A stretch of 64,000 nt of DNA from Eledone cirrhosa (Eukaryota), in the NCBI GenBank assembly GCA_964016885.1, contig OZ024759.1, positions 14,880,001 to 14,944,000 of the forward strand, in the 5' to 3' direction. Below, one piece after another: positions 18,867 to 63,912 of this stretch. The notes beneath the pieces are model-generated. The model had not been told where the DNA came from, did no database searches, and saw only the letters and a list, made by a program, of their open reading frames with translations. Every line of letters starts with the position of its first letter. Positions within the stretch are counted from its first letter, which is position 1. Made by a program: the position numbers and the translations under genes.

Positions 18867-19058
18867 GGTGGTGGATTGGCAGTATCGGTAGAGGGTCGGA
18901 CGCCATGCTTTGACGTATAGAGTTACGGCCCTTGCCATTCTGAGTTCAAACCCCGCCGAGGTTAACTTGGCCTTTCATCCTTTCGGGGTCAATAAAATAG
19001 AGTACCAGTAATGCACTGGATTAATTGTCGGCCTTTCTGCCAGAAGTAGAAACAATTA
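18867..19058 (+). mobile_element. OK-like SINE
   Basis: Full head, core and tail match the other copies. Confidence 0.88.
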
Positions 19059-19214
19059 TTTTATCTTTCAACATTTCACGATGTTTCCAATTAAAATCAG
19101 ATCGTACTTGTCATATTTAGCTGTACAAGAAACGAGAAAATCATTTTAGTATATATTCTTCTGGTCAATAGTTAGATGATACAGATGGCGTATGGTGTTA
19201 CATCTAGGTAAAGT

Positions 19215-21217: not shown

Positions 21218-22397
21218 GTATATGTATATGTATATATATGTATATATATGTATATGTATATATATGTATATGTATATATATATGTATATGTATGTATATG
21301 TATATGTATGTATATGTATATGTATATATATGTATATATATGTATATGTATATATATGTATATATATGTATATGTATATATATGTATATGTATATATATG
21401 TATATGTATATATATGTATATGTATATATATGTATATGTATATATATGTATATGTATATATATGTATATGTATATATATGTATATGTATATATATGTATA
21501 TGTATATATATGTATATGTATATATATGTATATGTATATATATGTATATGTATATATATGTATATATATGTATATGTATATATATGTATATATATGTATA
21601 TGTATATATATATGTGTGTATATGTATATATATATGTGTGTATATGTATATATATATGTGTGTATATGTATATATATATGTGTGTATATGTATATATATA
21701 TGTGTGTATATGTATATATATATATGTGTGTATATGTATATATATATATGTGTGTATATGTATATATATATATGTGTGTATATGTATATATATATATGTG
21801 TGTATATGTATATATATATATGTGTATATGTATATATATATATGTGTATATGTATATACATATATGTGTATATGTATATATATATATGTGTATATGTATA
21901 TATATATATGTGTATATGTATATATATATATGTGTATATGTATATATATATATGTGTATATGTATATGTATATATATATATGTGTATATGTATATATATA
22001 TATGTGTATATGTATATATATATATGTGTATATGTATATATATATGTGTATATGTATATATATGTGTATATGTATGTATATATATGTGTATATGTATGTA
22101 TATATATGTGTATATGTATATATATATATGTGTATATGTATATATATATATGTGTATATGTATATATATATATGTGTATATGTATATATATATATGTGTA
22201 TATGTATATATATATATGTGTATATGTATATATGTATATGTGTATATGTATATATATATATGTGTATATGTATATGTGTATATGTATATATATATATGTG
22301 TATATGTATATGTGTATATGTATATATATATATGTGTATATATATGTGTATATGTATATATGTGTATATGTATATATATATATATATGTATATATAT
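19523..22397. repeat. 2.9-kb (TA)n/TG microsatellite
   Basis: Seen directly; ends exactly at element A1. Confidence 0.97.
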
Positions 22398-22846
22398 GAT
22401 ATTAAATAAATGGAAACTATATTTATTTCCTTATATATATATTTCAGGGATATCATATTAACAATATGTTATGCCTTCATCAGACAAAATACAATATAAA
22501 CAGTCTTATAAATAAATAGATATGACATACCTTTCAATCGACCTGCATTTGGGAAGTTGATTTGGCAGATCAACTTCCAAATCAACTTCCCAAATGCAGG
22601 TCGATTGAAAGGTATGTCATATCTATTTATTTATAAGACTGTTTATATTGTATTTTGTCTGATGAAGGCATAACATATTGTTAATATGATATCCCTGAAA
22701 TATATATAATGAAATAAATATGGTTTTATAAATATAGTTTCCATTTATTTAATATCATAAATATACTCCAAATACTTGTTGAGTGCTTTTATATCAGTTA
22801 TAAATATTTACTCGTTGTTAACCCAACAATTTAAATATAACTTTCC
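22398..22846 (+). mobile_element. Fold-back hammerhead element, family A copy 1
   Basis: Inverted arms 22398-22565 and 22577-22756, then a 90-nt tail into (TA)n; homologous to copies at 38003, 52044, 52906 and 55285. Confidence 0.85.
22651..22716 (+). ncRNA. Minimal type-I hammerhead ribozyme motif (A1)
   Basis: TATTTTGT-CTGATGA-stem II AGGCATAACATATT/AATATGATATCCCT-GAAA-TATATA-TA|ATGAAATA; stem I pairs 8/8 allowing G-U. Confidence 0.8.
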
Positions 22847-23299
22847 ATATATGTATATATATATATATAAATGTGTGTATATATATAAATCTGTGTATAT
22901 ATATATATGTATATATAAATATGTGTGTGTATATATATAAATGTGTGTATATATATATGTATATATATATATAAATGTGTGTGTATATATGTATGCATAT
23001 ATATATAAATGTGTGTATATATGTATGCATATATATATATATAAATGTGTGTATATATGTATGCATATATATATATATAAATGTGTGTATATATGTATGC
23101 ATATATATATAAATATATGTATGTATATATGTATGCAAATATATATATATATATATACAAATATATGTATGTATATATGTATGCAAATATATATATATAT
23201 ATATATATAAATATATGTATGTATATATGTATGCATATATTTATATATATATATATATATATAGATCAATAAATATATCTATGTATGTGTATATATATA

Positions 23300-23380
<81 letters not shown>

Positions 23381-23571
23381 AAGGAAATGTGGTAATGAAC
23401 CAGATGGACCATAACGCACCAGAGTACGCAAGACTTAGCGTCGTAGAGTGGGAAATAGGAAAAAGTATGACCCCCGATGGCAGAGATCAGGCCGTTTCGA
23501 CGGCTATCTCTGGACTCCAGAAATAGCTGCCGAAACGGCTTGAGCTCTGCCGTCGAGGTCTTACTTTCCCC

Positions 23572-23608: not shown

Positions 23609-24131
23609 GATAATAAGGTCGCTGCGGAGTTGCAAATGGGTTACATGTGAAAACAGTTTGTCCTTCATCAGTGATCTTCCAACCATCATAGGCATTTCAT
23701 CGCTTTAAAGACCATATACCTCCGGTTGGTGCGAGCAACGGCTAAAAAAAGTCGTTGGGACACGTAAATAAAGGGGACGCGAGGGTAAACAAACAAAATG
23801 GTGAAGCAACAGAAAGGGAGGAAGAAAGAGACAAGTCCCAGATTTCTATGAATTTAAATTCGGTGAAATCGTGAACGAGAGAATAAAGACCCTCAAACCT
23901 GATTCTCTCGTTCACGATTTCACCGAATTTAAATTCATAGAAATCTGGGACTTGTCTCTTTCTTCCTCACTTTCTGTTGCTTCACCATTTTGTTTGTTTA
24001 CCCTCGCGTCCCCTTTATTTACGTGTCCCAACGACTTTTTTTAGCCGTTGCTCGCACCAACCGGAGGTATATGGTCTTTAAAGCGATGAAATGCCTATGA
24101 TGGTTGGAAGATCACTGATGAAGGACAAACT
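23609..24131 (-). mobile_element. Large fold-back element with 230-bp arms
   Basis: Arms 23655-23884 and 23902-24131, near-perfect; CTGATGA close to the outer end of each arm; (TA)n flanks. Confidence 0.75.
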
Positions 24132-24320
24132 TTTTATATACATATATATATATCAATAAATATATGTATGTATGTGTAAATATGTATCCATATATACATA
24201 TAAACACACATATGCACCACACCAAATATACATATGTAGTAAATTATTTTACTTGTTACAGTCAGTAGACTTCGGCCCAGCTGAGACACCACGTTGGAAA
24301 ACACACACACACACACACAC

Positions 24321-25395: not shown

Positions 25396-25560
25396 ATGAA
25401 GTATTTCCGTCAGAAATGTACAGGAAAAAAGAGTGCTCTATGTAGGCTACAGAGCTTATTATTTATGTAATACACAACATAAGATAGTCATTTCATTTAC
25501 CAGTGGTTTCTTGAAGAAAGACCTGGTAAATGAATTAATTATCTTATGTTGTTTATTACA

Positions 25561-25604
<44 letters not shown>

Positions 25605-25609
<5 letters not shown>

Positions 25610-25972
25610 GGCTTCTACAGGACTAGAACTGTTTCATTCGGAAGAAATCATCAGGAAAGCTTTTATATTATATATTTATACAGGGCAGCGGATTGGCAGT
25701 ATCGGTAGGGCGTCGGACATGCTTTGCGGCATAGAGTTACGGCCCTTTATGATCTGAGTTCAAATCCCGCCGAGGTTAACTTTACCTTCCTTACGGGGTC
25801 GATAAAATAAAGTACCAGTAATACACTGAGGTAGATTTAATCGCCTTTTCCCTTCCCCAAAATTGTTAGCCTTCTGCCTATATAAGAAGCCATATTATAT
25901 ATGTATACTCTGCTATGGATTGAGTGCCTTACTTACTGTGGTTACCCCCGATTGAGCCCGGGATAAACATAT
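25605..25972 (+). mobile_element. Family I element (hammerhead-like inverted piece plus tail) interrupted by a SINE
   Basis: 25605-25660 matches 51346-51400; 25885-25972 matches the reverse complement of 51256-51357. Confidence 0.6.
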
Positions 25973-26441
25973 ATATTGGCAGTATCGGTAGAGCGTCTGA
26001 CACCATGCTTTGCAGCATAGAGTTACGGCCCTTTGTAGTCTGACTTCAAATCCTGCCGAGGTTAACTTTGCGTTTCATTCTTACGGGGTCGATAAAATAA
26101 AGTACCGAGCTCTCGTTTTCACACTCAACCCAATTTGGTGGGGCCAGTGCCGCAGTGGGGCGTATGTGAGGGACTTTGGCCGACGGAGGTGATAAACACA
26201 ACATATTTGATCCATTTAGATAATACAGATATAAACACACATGCCGTATTATTATTGCGGTGAATTGGCAGTATCAGTAGAGAGTTGGATGCCATGATTT
26301 CTAGCATAGTTACGTCTCTTTACGGTCTGGGTTCAAAACCCGTCGAGGTTAACTTTAACTTTCATCCTTACGGGGTCGATAAAATAAAGTACCAGTAATG
26401 CACTGGTTAATTGATAGCCTAGTGCCAAAAGTAGAAACAAC
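25684..26441 (+). mobile_element. Three OK-like SINE copies
   Basis: Copies at about 25684-25880, 25976-26106 and 26257-26441. Confidence 0.85.
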
Positions 26442-26639
26442 TATTATTGTCTTTAGACGGCACCCAAGTTGGGGTATTGCCATGAAGGGATTTAATCGGT
26501 CTTATCAAAATTAACACTCAGTTGTTTAGGTGTCATACTTGTCTAGATCAGCGATTCCCACCATGGGGCAGATGCCACCTAGGGGGGCAAATTGTAAATG
26601 ATGTTAAAGAGAACAAACTTCAGGTTCAATCTTATGACT

Positions 26640-27874: not shown

Positions 27875-28011
27875 AAACAAAGAGGGTCTGCTAAGATAAC
27901 AGGTGGATCATAACGCACTAGAGTACTCAATACTTAGGGTAGTAGAGTGGATGAAAGGAAAAAGTCAGGGACCCGACGGCTGAGCTCGGGTCGTTTTGAC
28001 AGCTAGATCCG
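27875..28011 (-). mobile_element. Family B copy 2 (no fold-back arm)
   Basis: ggatcataacgcactagagtactcaatacttagggtagtagagtgg...cccgacggctgagctc matches B1 and B3. Confidence 0.75.
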
Positions 28012-29419: not shown

Positions 29420-29818
29420 AATCGATTATATCAAAACCAGTATATGATTGATACTTTACCTACACCGGGGTGGTGAAAGACACATTTGCTCGCTGCGTGA
29501 TTTGAACTCAGTATGTAAAGAGCCGTAACAAACACTTCTACACATTTGTCCGATACTCTAACAACTCTGTCAATCCAGCGTCCGCAATATCAACTAATAA
29601 TGGTTTCTTATTTCGGCACAAGGCCAGCAAATTTTGGGAGGAAGGGAAAGTCGATTAAATCGACCCCAGTGCATGGCTGGTACTTTATTTTACCGACCCC
29701 GTAAGGATGAAAGGCAAAGTCAACCTGCGCGCGATTTGAACTCACATCATAAAGGGCTGTAACTCTATCCTGCAATGCATGGCGTCAGACCCTCTACCGA
29801 TACTGCCAATCCACTGCC
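29420..29818 (-). mobile_element. Two OK-like SINEs (one degenerate)
   Basis: ggatgaaaggcaaagtcaacc...gatttgaactc...tactgccaatccac. Confidence 0.8.
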
Positions 29819-30214
29819 CTAACAATATCAACCAATAATAGCTTATTGTGAAAGCCCCTGACGTACTGTTTAAGTGGCACAACACGCAATCGTTCAGTTC
29901 GATTCTTGATGGTGCGTTGGGTCTTTGAGCAAGACACTTCATTTCATATTGCCCCAATGAACTCAGCTTGCACAAAATGAGCTGCACTTGTAACGAAAAG
30001 GGCAGACATGGCTCGCTACGTTGTGCAATGCTGAAGCTCTCTCTCTCTCTATCTCTCTCTCTCTCTCTCTGGATTGCATAAAGAGAACACGTGTCTATGA
30101 AATACTTAACAAGTTACACATAATTTAAAGATCAGAAATAAATCTTGCTAACCACTTGTTCCTGACGATGAAGCAATTATGTCAATACACCACCATAGAG
30201 CGGTAATTTGTAAC

Positions 30215-30450
30215 TATTTCTGCTTTTGGCACACGACCAGCAATTTGTTTTCTTTTATTTTAGGTGGGTGGAAGAGAAAGTCGATTACATTACTGGTACT
30301 TTATTTTATCGACCCCGTAAGGATGAAAGGCAAAGTTACTCTCGGCGGGATTTGAAGGTTAACTTTTGCCTTTCATCCTAACGGGGTCGATAAAATAAAG
30401 TGCCAGTAACACACTGGAATAATTGCTGGCCTTGTCCCCATAGTAGAAAT
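30215..30450. mobile_element. Two SINE 3' halves fused in inverted orientation
   Basis: 30291-30348 is the reverse complement of 30358-30418. Confidence 0.8.
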
Positions 30451-54184: not shown

Positions 54185-54490
54185 TATTATTGAGTAAACT
54201 GACAGGAGGCTGGACAGGTGAAATTCCTTCAAAGATTTTTAATAAATCTTTTAATAAATCTTTTAATAAATCTTTTAATAAATCTTTAATAAATCTTTGA
54301 ACGAATTTCACCAGTCCAGCCTCCTGTCATTTTCCTCAATAATAATTAACTCGTTCTCGCACTACCAACAAGATTCAACATAAACGAAGATGGATGAGTT
54401 GCATTGCGTCGAGTGCTTTTCCTAATATCGCATCACGGTTGATTATACGGAATGACCGGTTCTATCCCGTGGTGAACCAACCAACCTAAA
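54185..54490 (+). mobile_element. Fold-back element, family C
   Basis: Arms 54185-54238 and 54291-54344; loop of about five 12-mers; 145-nt tail into TA. Confidence 0.75.
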
Positions 54491-55102: not shown

Positions 55103-55250
55103 GACAAACTTAACTAGAAAATAGTGTTTTGGGACGCGAGCGTATTAGAATTCTCAGGAAAATGGGAAAACTCGGCGTATGGATGCTGTTAGAACAGAAA
55201 AATACCGTCTTAGCTTCCATACGCCGAGTTTTCTCATTTCCATGAGAATT
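55103..55250 (-). mobile_element. Fold-back element, family D
   Basis: Arms 55149-55183 and 55216-55250, tail on the left, TA flanks. Confidence 0.65.
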
Positions 55251-55284
55251 GTATATATATGTATATATATATAAATATATATAC

Positions 55285-55720
55285 ACGATATTAACAATGG
55301 AAACTATATTTATAAAACCATATTTATTTCATTATACATATTTCAAGGACAGCAAGTTAAATTATGGTGTGCTTTCATCAGATAAAATATAATATAGACC
55401 TGTTTTATAAATAAATATTGATATACCCTTAAAGAATGCAACCATTTCTGTTGGAAGCTCCGGAACAGTATGGTTGCATTCTTTAAGGGTATCTCAATAT
55501 TTATTTATAAAACTGCTCTATATTATATTTTATCTGATGAAAGCACACCATAATTTAACTTGGTGTCCTTGAAATATGTATAATGAAATAAATATGGTTT
55601 TATAAATATAGTTTCCATTTGTTAATATCGTATTTTTACTCCAATTATTTGTTGAGTGCTTTATATCAGTTATAAAAATATTTGCTTGTTGTATCCCAAC
55701 AATTTAAATTGAACTTTCAC
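55285..55720 (+). mobile_element. Fold-back hammerhead element, family A copy 3
   Basis: Arms 55285-55452 and 55464-55631, tail to 55720. Confidence 0.87.
55526..55590 (+). ncRNA. Minimal type-I hammerhead ribozyme motif (A3)
   Basis: TATTTTAT-CTGATGA-AAGCACACCA...TGGTGTCCTT-GAAA-TATGTA-TA|ATGAAATA. Confidence 0.8.
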
Positions 55721-55774
<54 letters not shown>

Positions 55775-55783
<9 letters not shown>

Positions 55784-56055
55784 AATAACAGATTAAAGTT
55801 TAAGCAAAGAATCGCTGCTTTCACCCTTAACGGGATCTTCTGAAACTAACAAAGTCAATCTGTAAACGCAGAAGTGGATATTTCAAAAAACATTGCAACC
55901 GGAGGAAGATCCCGTTAAGGGTGAAAGCAGCGACTCTTTGCTTAAACTTTAATCTGTTATTTTAATAAATATTTGCTCTACGGTTCTTATATATTTGATA
56001 TATATTTATCCTTATCGAGCCCTCTTTGGATTTTAGTCTTCAATTTTATTATTAT

Positions 56056-56390: not shown

Positions 56391-57024
56391 TCGCGCTCTC
56401 TCTCTCTATATATATATATATATGTATATATGATATATATATATATGATATATATATATATGATATATATATATGATGTAGAACACTCATGTATCCGTAG
56501 TAGTAGAGCACTCAGTCCTTGGCTCGAGTTTAAAATGAGCTTATGATCCAAGTAAGGTGAAACAATTGTTCTTGGAAATGGTGAATTAACTGTTGTGGAA
56601 CTACTTTTATATATATATATATATATATATACTCAAGCAAGTATTAGTCACAAGGATTTATTAAGTGTTCTTAATGGCTGCACAACTGGCTTTCAGAAAC
56701 CACAACCTCCGTCAAAATATTTAGCGTTAGCTCCATATAGCTGCTGACAAGAAACTTCCAAGTAGAAGTTCTTCAGTGAAGAAACCCCACTCAAGTGTTT
56801 CGGCCTTTACCGCCTTACACACAAAGAGGGCCAGGATCGCATCTAAGTTATGACACCTGGGTGCCCCTCTGTTCTCATTTAGCCATTCGGATATCAGGGA
56901 GTTGTTGTGTAGATATTGGTTTACAAGATTTGCTTTTAAACTCATATTTAAATACTTTCTTCAACTTGCAAAATAACGTTGGGAGATATAATTGTTTTAC
57001 TTTTTTCACGAGTGTTTTTCTGGC

Positions 57025-57137
57025 GCTTATTTTATCGATCCCGTAAGGATGAAAGGCAAAGCTAACCTCAGCGGGATTTGAACTCAAACCATAAAGAGCC
57101 GTAACTCTATGCTACAAAACATGGCGTCCGACCCTCT
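57025..57137 (-). mobile_element. OK-like SINE fragment
   Basis: tttatcgatcccgtaaggatgaaaggc...gatttgaactc...atggcgtccgaccctcta. Confidence 0.82.
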
Positions 57138-58167
57138 AATTTTAACGTTAATCCATCGGTTGGCTTGGCAGTAAAAATAGTCAGTGGACCGTCGGACAAA
57201 AGCATATATATGGCGGTATCTTGTAGCATTGACTAGAGTGTGTGTCTGTCTGTGTGTGTATCCGTGTGTCTGCTTTTATTTGAAGTAGTTTTCTTGTGTG
57301 TGCCTGTGAGTATACGTACTTGTGTGTGTGTGTGTGGGGGGGGGGGGCTGTGGATTATTTATGCATATACATACCTATACATATACATATATACATATAC
57401 ACACATATATAGACACATATATACACATATATATATATATATAGACATATATATCCACACACATATATATCCACACACACATATATATATATATACACAC
57501 ATATACATACATACATACATATATATACACACATACATATACGCATACATATATATACACACATACATATATACATATGTATATACATGCATTGATTACT
57601 CCATTTGTGGTCTCCCCGGTCTCAGCAAGGCACACACGTACACTCATACATATATATATATTTATATCCATCCTTGTATATTTTTATGTCTGTATGTATA
57701 TAAGTATCTACTTTATATATATATGTGTGTGTCTGTGTCTGTGTGCGCCTGTGTGTCTCTGTGTGTGTGAGTGTGTGTATGTATGGCGTCGTGACCTGAG
57801 ATATTTAATCATAACGTCGAAATATCATCAATAAATCATATAAATACTTCACAAACATTTCCGGAGATGCCATCTTTTCTGTGTAATTTGACAGCCATCT
57901 TGCCTCTCTTATCCATATATTTACATACAGACATAAAATCGCTGCAAGATTTTATCACCAAAAACCCAAACATCAAAAAATTCTTACCAACTCAAAATAA
58001 CAAAAGACCATTGAATGAAATCTAAAATGGAAGTACACGTTAATATCTACGCATGCGCCTGAATGTATTCCTTTTCATACTTTATGCTTTTGTCTTTTGT
58101 CTCCCTTCGATACATCATTGTCATTACATCCCACAGAAAATAAGTCGGATAACTTGTAACAGACTTC

Positions 58168-58473: not shown

Positions 58474-58605
58474 AGTCAGAACCCCGACGACAGAACTCAA
58501 GCCATTTCGACAGCTATGTCTGGACCCACTCTACAACTCAAAGTATCGATTACTCGATACTTTGTTGAGTTATGGTCCACCTGGTTCCTTGCCACACATA
58601 CTTCG

Positions 58606-58607
<2 letters not shown>
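58474..58607 (+). mobile_element. Family B copy 5 (right arm deleted)
   Basis: Inverted arm 58474-58524 joins the tail directly; extra local hairpin aaagtatcga/tcgatacttt. Confidence 0.7.
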
Positions 58608-59340: not shown

Positions 59341-59750
59341 TAAGGAGCAGAAACTAGTGGAGGAAGCTAGATTCTACAGGCTAGATACAGTCAGGGTTTC
59401 CCCCACAAAGTTTCGTATCTCTGACACTGTAGATTTGCATGGAGGATGGAAACTAAAACTATTCAGGTGTGGCAAAAGAAATGACTTCACATGTGGCAGT
59501 GGGGATACTCACAAACCCACGACTGTCAGAATGTGTTATGGACTGGATCCCGTTAAGAGGGAGAATTTGCTTCATAAAGCTGAGGCAGAAAGATATGCAG
59601 GTAGTGCACGTTTAAATACTAAACAAGGAGTCCAAATGCAGGTCCTTCCTTGATTAAGTCACTTCAACGTTAGATGTAGTTAAGACTGAACCATATATCC
59701 TGATGGAAGAATTCATTGCACATGTTGGCACTGACGACCCGACATGGTTT
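59341..59750 (+). mobile_element. RTE-clade AP-endonuclease fragment
   Basis: KEQKLVEEARFYRLDTV...GGWKL, and in a shifted frame VAVGIL...WIPLRGRIC...ILMEEFIAHVG (decayed GDFNAHVG). Confidence 0.75.
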
Positions 59751-63138: not shown

Positions 63139-63142
<4 letters not shown>

Positions 63143-63392
63143 GAAAGGATTACAAAAGAGAATACATACTGTTAGAACATGCTTATATAAACATGTTCTA
63201 ACAGTCTATATTCTTCTTTGTAATCCTTTCATTTGTAACCGCTCTGCTTATATTCTCGCCCACTAAATATTAACGCTTCCGATATTTAACCCTGTAGGCA
63301 CAAGTATTGAGCACAAATGCACCAGCTTTTGGCACTAATTATATGTATCGCTTATCCCTTTAAACCTCTACTCTCTCACGATACTAAAATAT
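63139..63392 (+). mobile_element. Fold-back element, family G
   Basis: Arms 63139-63181 and 63192-63234; tail contains caagtattgagcac. Confidence 0.65.
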
Positions 63393-63695: not shown

Positions 63696-63701
<6 letters not shown>

Positions 63702-63739
63702 ACTTGACTTGGTTATTGTTTTCATTGTTAAATTAATAT

Positions 63740-63782
<43 letters not shown>

Positions 63783-63912
63783 TATTAATTTAACAATGAA
63801 AACAATAACCAAGTCAAGTTATTTTACCTATTCATATCATTGTTTTACGATCGTTTCAGAGGGTTGATGATATTGACTGATCTATAGTAGGTCTATAACT
63901 GTATACCATCAG
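63696..63912 (-). mobile_element. Inverted repeat with (TA)n loop and hammerhead-like remnant (family H)
   Basis: 46-bp arms 63696-63741 and 63780-63825; reverse complement of 63846-63857 reads GAAA-CGATCG-TA. Confidence 0.6.

Follow-up and report, generated by a model that had tools for sequence, protein, structure and literature searches.

Positions 22388-22845 of the window, by which the whole 64-kb stretch of DNA analysed is meant, hold two terminal repeats (pLTR ends) of a Penelope-like element (PLE), each with a hammerhead motif and arranged head to head, referred to here as copy c1. The window is AT-rich animal DNA, rich in (TA)n-type satellites, and (TA)n-type flanks lie on both sides of c1 and of three further copies, c2-c4, microsatellite sequence that would mask any target-site duplication. 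The hairpin arms of c1 (22434-22568 and 22574-22708) are 135 nt long, 99% complementary and separated by a loop of 5 nt (z -37), and their pairing runs outward to 22388/22766. Along each arm the order is the same, namely a tip, the motif GGTATGTCA, an AT-rich stem, CUGAUGA, stem II, GAAA and a conserved 3′ region. The left arm (22388..22568, minus strand) is thus an inverted pLTR end made up of leader, GGTATGTCA (here at 22523-22531, minus strand), hammerhead and a short 3′ end, and it borders a (TA)n-rich satellite. The head-to-head junction is the loop itself (22569..22573), and related contigs of the public run X1, described below, begin in the 22572-22581 bin. On the plus strand, the right arm opens with its tip (22574..22610), the presumptive leader or exon 1 of a subfamily, which carries the pattern CTTCC-N8-GGTCG at 22586 and is common to other loci. 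The conserved boundary GGTATGTCA follows at 22611..22619 and is a putative 5′ splice donor, with its GT at 22612, by analogy to Penelope (PMC2377424). A minimal type I hammerhead-like motif occupies 22622..22734 and comprises stem I, CUGAUGA (22659-22665), stem II (22666-22696), GAAA (22697-22700) and a palindromic UAUAUA. The right arm ends in a one-sided tail of ~80 nt (22767..22845), which the left arm lacks, which contains the conserved TTTATATCAG (22788..22797, plus strand), a candidate 3′ splice acceptor present in all four tail-bearing copies, and after which (TA)n resumes.

The first-pass annotation of this DNA had pictured a constant ribozyme scaffold to which a variable double-stranded tip was joined. 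That geometry was a misreading: the whole ribozyme region lies in both c1 arms, so that the double-stranded tip marks where two inverted copies meet, and the fold represents an inverted duplication of the whole element rather than a scaffold with an added tip. The hairpin and its motif are nonetheless a real feature, of a known kind, the PLE fold-back, and the PLE and hammerhead context that had been proposed is supported.

Five other copies of the family lie in the window. Copy c2 (52036..52465) is a head-to-head pair with an 18-bp tip stem, a 13-nt loop, a right-arm tail and the core variant CUGAAGA; copy c3 (55278..55722) is likewise a head-to-head pair with a right-arm tail, its left arm passing through the loop in the family orientation. 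Copy c4 (38003..38363, minus strand) consists of a body with tail and a tip hairpin (38295-38359), its second arm ending just past GGTATGTCA; the tip is split from the body by a repeat-like, unrelated insert of ~50 nt (38246-38294) with GGTAT at both edges, which entered later and precisely at the donor-like motif. Two copies are single: c5 (52905..53073, plus strand) is short-ended, with a 10-bp stem only and its donor-like GT changed to TT, and c6 (33144..33260, plus strand) is a more distant relative with no significant hairpin. The earlier statement that each tip folds into its own hairpin therefore holds for four of the six copies, c1-c4, which are true fold-backs (z -18.7, -13.8, -11.3 and -9.0), and fails for the copies at 52942 (c5, z -1.5) and 33144 (c6, z -2.2). 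The right arms of c1, c2 and c3 exceed their left arms by ~80 nt, and no tandem (head-to-tail) pair is found among the six copies. With gaps not counted, arms within a copy are 97-100% identical, but the bodies of c1-c5 are only 81-90% identical to one another and c6 is 72-79% identical to the other copies, which indicates that the copies derive from different subfamilies.

Several other fold-backs share the window. A second fold-back-headed repeat family with (TA)n flanks occurs at 23381-23570, 27889-28005, 52490-52690, 53372-53466 and 58478-58606; it includes 52-bp perfect arms at 52490-52614, and its junction places and nearby sequence are similar between copies. The 485-nt fold-back at 23651-24135, 96% self-complementary, with CTGATGA near its outer ends and a one-sided extension, is probably another PLE end. 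Seven more short fold-backs (25463-25563, 30290-30409, 54185-54344, 55146-55253, 55775-55970, 63140-63233 and 63696-63825) mostly adjoin (TA)n tracts, and two near-identical long (TA)n-rich blocks (38414-39500 and 40687-42283) may represent a tandemly duplicated segment or an assembly repeat.

Coding sequence of a PLE is present elsewhere in the window, at 8780-10614 (minus strand), as a 5′-truncated remnant, its decayed ORF at ~9.1-10.6 kb, in which the RT thumb, the CxxC linker and the GIY-YIG end are spread over broken frames. A SINE-like insert interrupts it near 9348-9543; near 8900-8935 it has a variant hammerhead-like core of its own, and a (TA)n flank adjoins it. The insert belongs to a high-copy SINE-like repeat of ~200 nt, 80-95% identical between copies, also seen at 3166-4400, 16991-17355, 18855-19066, 25673-26454, 29595-29827 and 57005-57138. 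A 125-residue query from 10.2-10.6 kb of the remnant has a 68% match, covering 91% of the query, to a protein of Octopus vulgaris, which makes an octopus or a near relative the probable source of the DNA; Pfam gave sub-threshold matches only, and the end of the remnant differs from that of copies c1-c6. Its protein relatives number 159, and the 120 of them that were listed gave no tblastn match on copies c1-c6. None of the copies in the window runs on into an ORF, a weak peptide search with a 40-residue frame of the c2 tail found no match, and pattern scans returned no locus in metagenome contigs and none in viral contigs.

The boundary motif that had been reported at all six copies is indeed there, as GGTATGTCA or a variant, and the earlier placement agrees to within 1 nt. 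Outside c1 it lies at 33144, 38237 (minus), 38355, 52175 (minus)/52233, 52942 and 55419 (minus)/55488. The 9-mer by itself is not enriched in the window (16 matches with at most one mismatch versus 23.8 expected); what recurs is its location 27-56 nt upstream of a predicted hammerhead core (CUGANGA ... GAAA) in 6/6 copies. Stem II shows four pairs with two-sided changes among five copies. Rfam gave no gathering-level match in the 64 kb, the hammerhead models staying under threshold. GGTAYGTC is unpaired in the consensus fold computed for the downstream region, so structure does not account for its conservation; a pairing of GGTATGTCA with the 3′ end appeared in one MFE fold only (z 0.07) and was rejected. 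Two copies of a third hammerhead-like family, whose stem II is very short, lie at 25607-25679 and 51347-51420 (minus strand) and are 87% alike.

Upstream of the motif, the tips had been described as unrelated. Comparison of the 26 nt upstream of the anchor, at a single setting and with the best arm per copy, modifies this statement: out of 15 pairs, c3-c4 (p 0.001-0.002) and c2-c3 (p 0.012) are alike, c3-c4 alone staying significant after correction for 15 tests, and the other 13, including every pair with c1 and likewise the c6 tip, are not significantly alike. Summed over the four hairpin copies, tip similarity reaches p 0.008 against shuffled sequence and p 0.037 against random window DNA. 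A spaced pattern, CTTCC-N8/9-GGTYG, chosen after the tips had been inspected, is confined within the 64 kb to c2, c3 and both arms of c1, and it indicates which arm reads through the loop in the family orientation. In that orientation the distance from the GT upstream to the far loop edge is 43, 32, 43 and 41 nt in the four fold-backs. The pattern RGWYV, which we take to be a downstream-promoter pattern, fits all four of these tips 13-18 nt before the GT and was set aside as too short to count. For none of the six tips does the window hold a source beyond chance. At 59632-59660, separated by 4 nt, are two 13-nt stretches that match the c1 tip and the c6 upstream region best within the window; these matches are equalled in 3/60 and 7/60 shuffles and do not extend, a check whose own shuffle counts refer to a target chosen afterwards, and they are probably due to chance. 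Their surroundings are presumably a decayed LINE-endonuclease-like region, on which Pfam found no match.

Six tips from six subfamilies cannot demonstrate copy-specificity. Four public runs, X1, X5 and X17 from organism A and X4 from organism B, were aligned to 22562-22850 at 88% likeness, the comparison with other loci covering the c1 tip. They yielded 4,414 (X1), 692 (X5), 32,139 (X17) and 89 (X4) aligned records, numbers which imply that this PLE terminal-repeat family is abundant. Of ~6,900 X17 reads that extend to the boundary, 5,948 carry loose letters before 22605, whose consensus CAAATGCAAGTCGATG (agreement 0.93) differs from the c1 tip by one substitution and two extra bases. Because 6,907 of 6,919 reads differ from the window at 22620, and positions 22619, 22627 and 22643 split the reads into several haplotypes, these tip-bearing reads come from other loci; they are RAD reads that start at only 37-54 places, and some loci are over-sampled. 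In organism B, one X4 contig is ungapped over 22573-22632 with six differences, and another, among the loose ends listed, has a clearly homologous loose end at 22611; at least two further X5 contigs with a homologous tip are found among the loose ends listed. Beyond those listed there are 275 more, among which rare private tips could occur. The runs are not recorded as RNA, and the absence of a splice-like joint among the five listed carries no weight on splicing. The summed contig depth of X1, which is no copy number, is 0 at 22562-22571 and then 840, 4,942, 10,663 (22592-601), 27,479 and 40,979 (22612-21) in successive bins, and single X1 contigs among those listed have depths of 8-17. Most of the X1 depth at the boundary does not run on into the c1 tip at ≥88%, as expected for other subfamilies and also compatible with some private tips. 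The 22574-22610 tip, once called copy-specific, thus recurs in reads and contigs of other loci and in a second organism. This contradicts captured sequence as its origin, an origin that is weakened for three other tips, and the tips fall in part into ordinary subfamilies.

The arrangement is familiar from other PLEs. In Adineta, head-to-head pLTRs with palindromes of 18 and 38 bp at the junction and one-sided tails are described in PMC3846280, and PMC8557442 reports the head-to-head arrangement across PLE clades. The copies described here resemble these inverted pLTRs of EN+ PLEs in their head-to-head order, junction palindrome, tail on one arm, apparent microsatellite targets and hammerhead within the repeat. 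They differ from them in being without an ORF between or beside the repeats, in a tail of ~80 nt versus 30-40 nt, and in the nearly constant distance that separates the junction from a donor-like motif. On structure the copies belong with PLE pLTR insertions, given inverted copies with a palindromic junction in 4/6 cases, a tail at one end and a hammerhead-like motif. The putative ribozyme resembles the minimal hammerheads of metazoan PLEs (PMC4209133), found 100-700 bp apart on opposite strands, and those of animal non-LTR retrozymes (bioRxiv 10.64898/2026.07.22.740005): helix II is long, an additional base precedes stem II, loop 3 is palindromic, variability within the genome is high and pairs occur on opposite strands 100-700 bp apart. 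Retrozymes, however, are described in that preprint as head-to-tail tandem arrays, whereas the window copies are single or head-to-head, and with no tandem pair among six copies a tandem retrozyme was rejected. Head-to-head PLE palindromes being already published, c1 adds one more PLE fold-back family. The literature covered holds no account of this octopus family or of a variable leader at the donor; Repbase and most subscription journals lay outside that scope, and the family may be catalogued there.

Two further systems are comparable. In Drosophila virilis Penelope (PMC2377424), a promoter inside the pLTR drives transcription from position 371, and an intron begins at 416; the ~45 nt between start site and donor there are similar to the leader lengths found here (43, 32, 43 and 41 nt), and together these figures lead us to infer that the tip is exon 1. 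As in Penelope, where genomic copies keep the intron and the hammerhead lies beside it, an intron may be retained here, although the Penelope intron spans 75 nt up to the 5′ edge of helix I, whereas the candidate of ~185 nt would enclose the whole ribozyme; the published Penelope DPE, RGACGTGY, has no match here. In Poseidon of Anolis carolinensis, PMC11167929 describes reverse transcription that begins at two internal sites, with both strands cut and extended. The present copies are like Poseidon in their apparent AT-rich targets and in a tail for which two reverse-transcription start sites would account, and unlike it in that the Poseidon ORF starts inside the hammerhead and its start sites lie 30-40 nt apart.

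The copies are best explained as short retrotransposed pLTR pieces of one PLE family, inserted in (TA)n tracts. On balance, the tip is probably the leader (exon 1) specific to a subfamily, with GGTATG as its conserved splice donor and with PLE integration as the origin of the fold, which agrees, indirectly, with the option of a subfamily-specific exon end already raised in the first-pass annotation. In the scheme that we infer, with its start site, splicing, priming route and trans-acting enzyme, a sense, unspliced RNA would begin ~40-45 nt upstream of the putative donor GGTATG, and a PLE protein acting in trans would start reverse transcription at either of two internal sites, giving the short end near 22760 or the long end near 22845. 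Reverse transcription would proceed to the RNA 5′ end and yield short units; the inverted arm would arise when the cDNA end folds back on a few bases of microhomology, or by a second priming on the other strand, either of which would leave a hairpin with an asymmetric loop. The tip would then be double-stranded because the whole copy is inverted. If, among subfamilies, the leader between start site and donor diverges more rapidly than do the donor and the intron that bears the ribozyme, homology would appear to end at GGTATGTCA. In c2, three stem-closing bases match bases within the c3 loop, a sequence match that suggests templated microhomology priming. A weak hint consistent with a spliced frame is that leader length, counted from the ATG-equivalent codon, and acceptor offset sum to 27 nt in c2, c3 and c4 (20+7, 19+8 and 19+8); the frame fails in c1 (stop codon), in the organism-B variant (one base longer) and in c3 near its end, and a tip ATG is found only in c1 and c3. 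Against the leader reading stands the ~80-nt tail, which exceeds the published 30-40 nt. A bolder form of the proposal, in which the fold-back centre is the capped 5′ end of the sense, unspliced RNA and the leader a fast-turnover module replaced between subfamilies while the ribozyme-bearing intron is kept, is considered rather unlikely.

The alternative that survives best, itself unlikely though a serious contender, takes the tip for upstream sequence, a 3′ UTR or the end of an ORF, which differs between autonomous PLE subfamilies and is cut by ordinary 5′ truncation, with a length that reflects no start site and with GGTATGTCA at the outer limit of the ribozyme region under structural constraint. 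Subfamily-shared tips are predicted by this explanation as well, an F-x-x-x-G frame is open in four tips, and PLEs typically leave short 5′-truncated inverted copies (PMC8557442). The X1 depth bears on it in both directions, since its gradual rise over the tip (840 to 27,479) fits scattered truncation, but it is zero in the bin before. Scattered truncation is also at odds with three of four junctions lying 41-43 nt from the GT and with an unpaired GGTAYGTC that structure gives no reason to conserve, and none of the window copies reaches an ORF.

It is improbable that the leader is a swappable module in the sense that unrelated first exons or promoters were recruited at the donor, by flank capture or template switching, each founding a subfamily. 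Tips that are more diverged than bodies, with those of c1 and c6 lacking a significant alignment to the others, would suit such recruitment, capture of host DNA beside pLTRs is published for rotifer Pen1 (PMC3846280), and the 13-nt best matches of the c1 and c6 tips lie side by side. Yet shuffled sequence reaches these matches, which do not extend, the spaced pattern is common to c1, c2 and c3 and absent elsewhere in the window, and the c1 tip has graded variants in two organisms. That each insertion captured its own tip, or that the hairpin is kept as a small-RNA precursor, is highly improbable: a read-through transcript would give ~180 bp of near-perfect dsRNA, rotifer PLEs give small RNAs (PMC3846280) and Rfam miRNA models match, by shape only and below gathering scores (best 71 bits versus a cut-off of 80, for which miRNA identity was rejected), but the c1 tip is shared by several loci, which already contradicts capture for c1, no tip has a window donor beyond chance, the (TA)n flanks are unlike the tips, and the whole element lies in both arms, matching published PLE insertions.

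With the leader reading preferred, the remaining interest of these PLE fold-back copies lies in the near-constant junction distance combined with fast leader change. Since the family is abundant, an octopus assembly would allow the junction distance to be tested computationally. By our own reasoning, long inverted repeats of this kind are also candidate dsRNA for cephalopod editing or silencing. If the hairpin centres mark the RNA start site, the template was sense, unspliced RNA, and this answer bears on a point left open in PMC3846280, namely antisense self-priming versus an unspliced sense template. Should the bolder form of the proposal prove true, PLE start sites and leader swaps would be recorded, as in a fossil map, in the many octopus copies, which would settle the choice between sense-template and antisense self-priming models of PLE replication.
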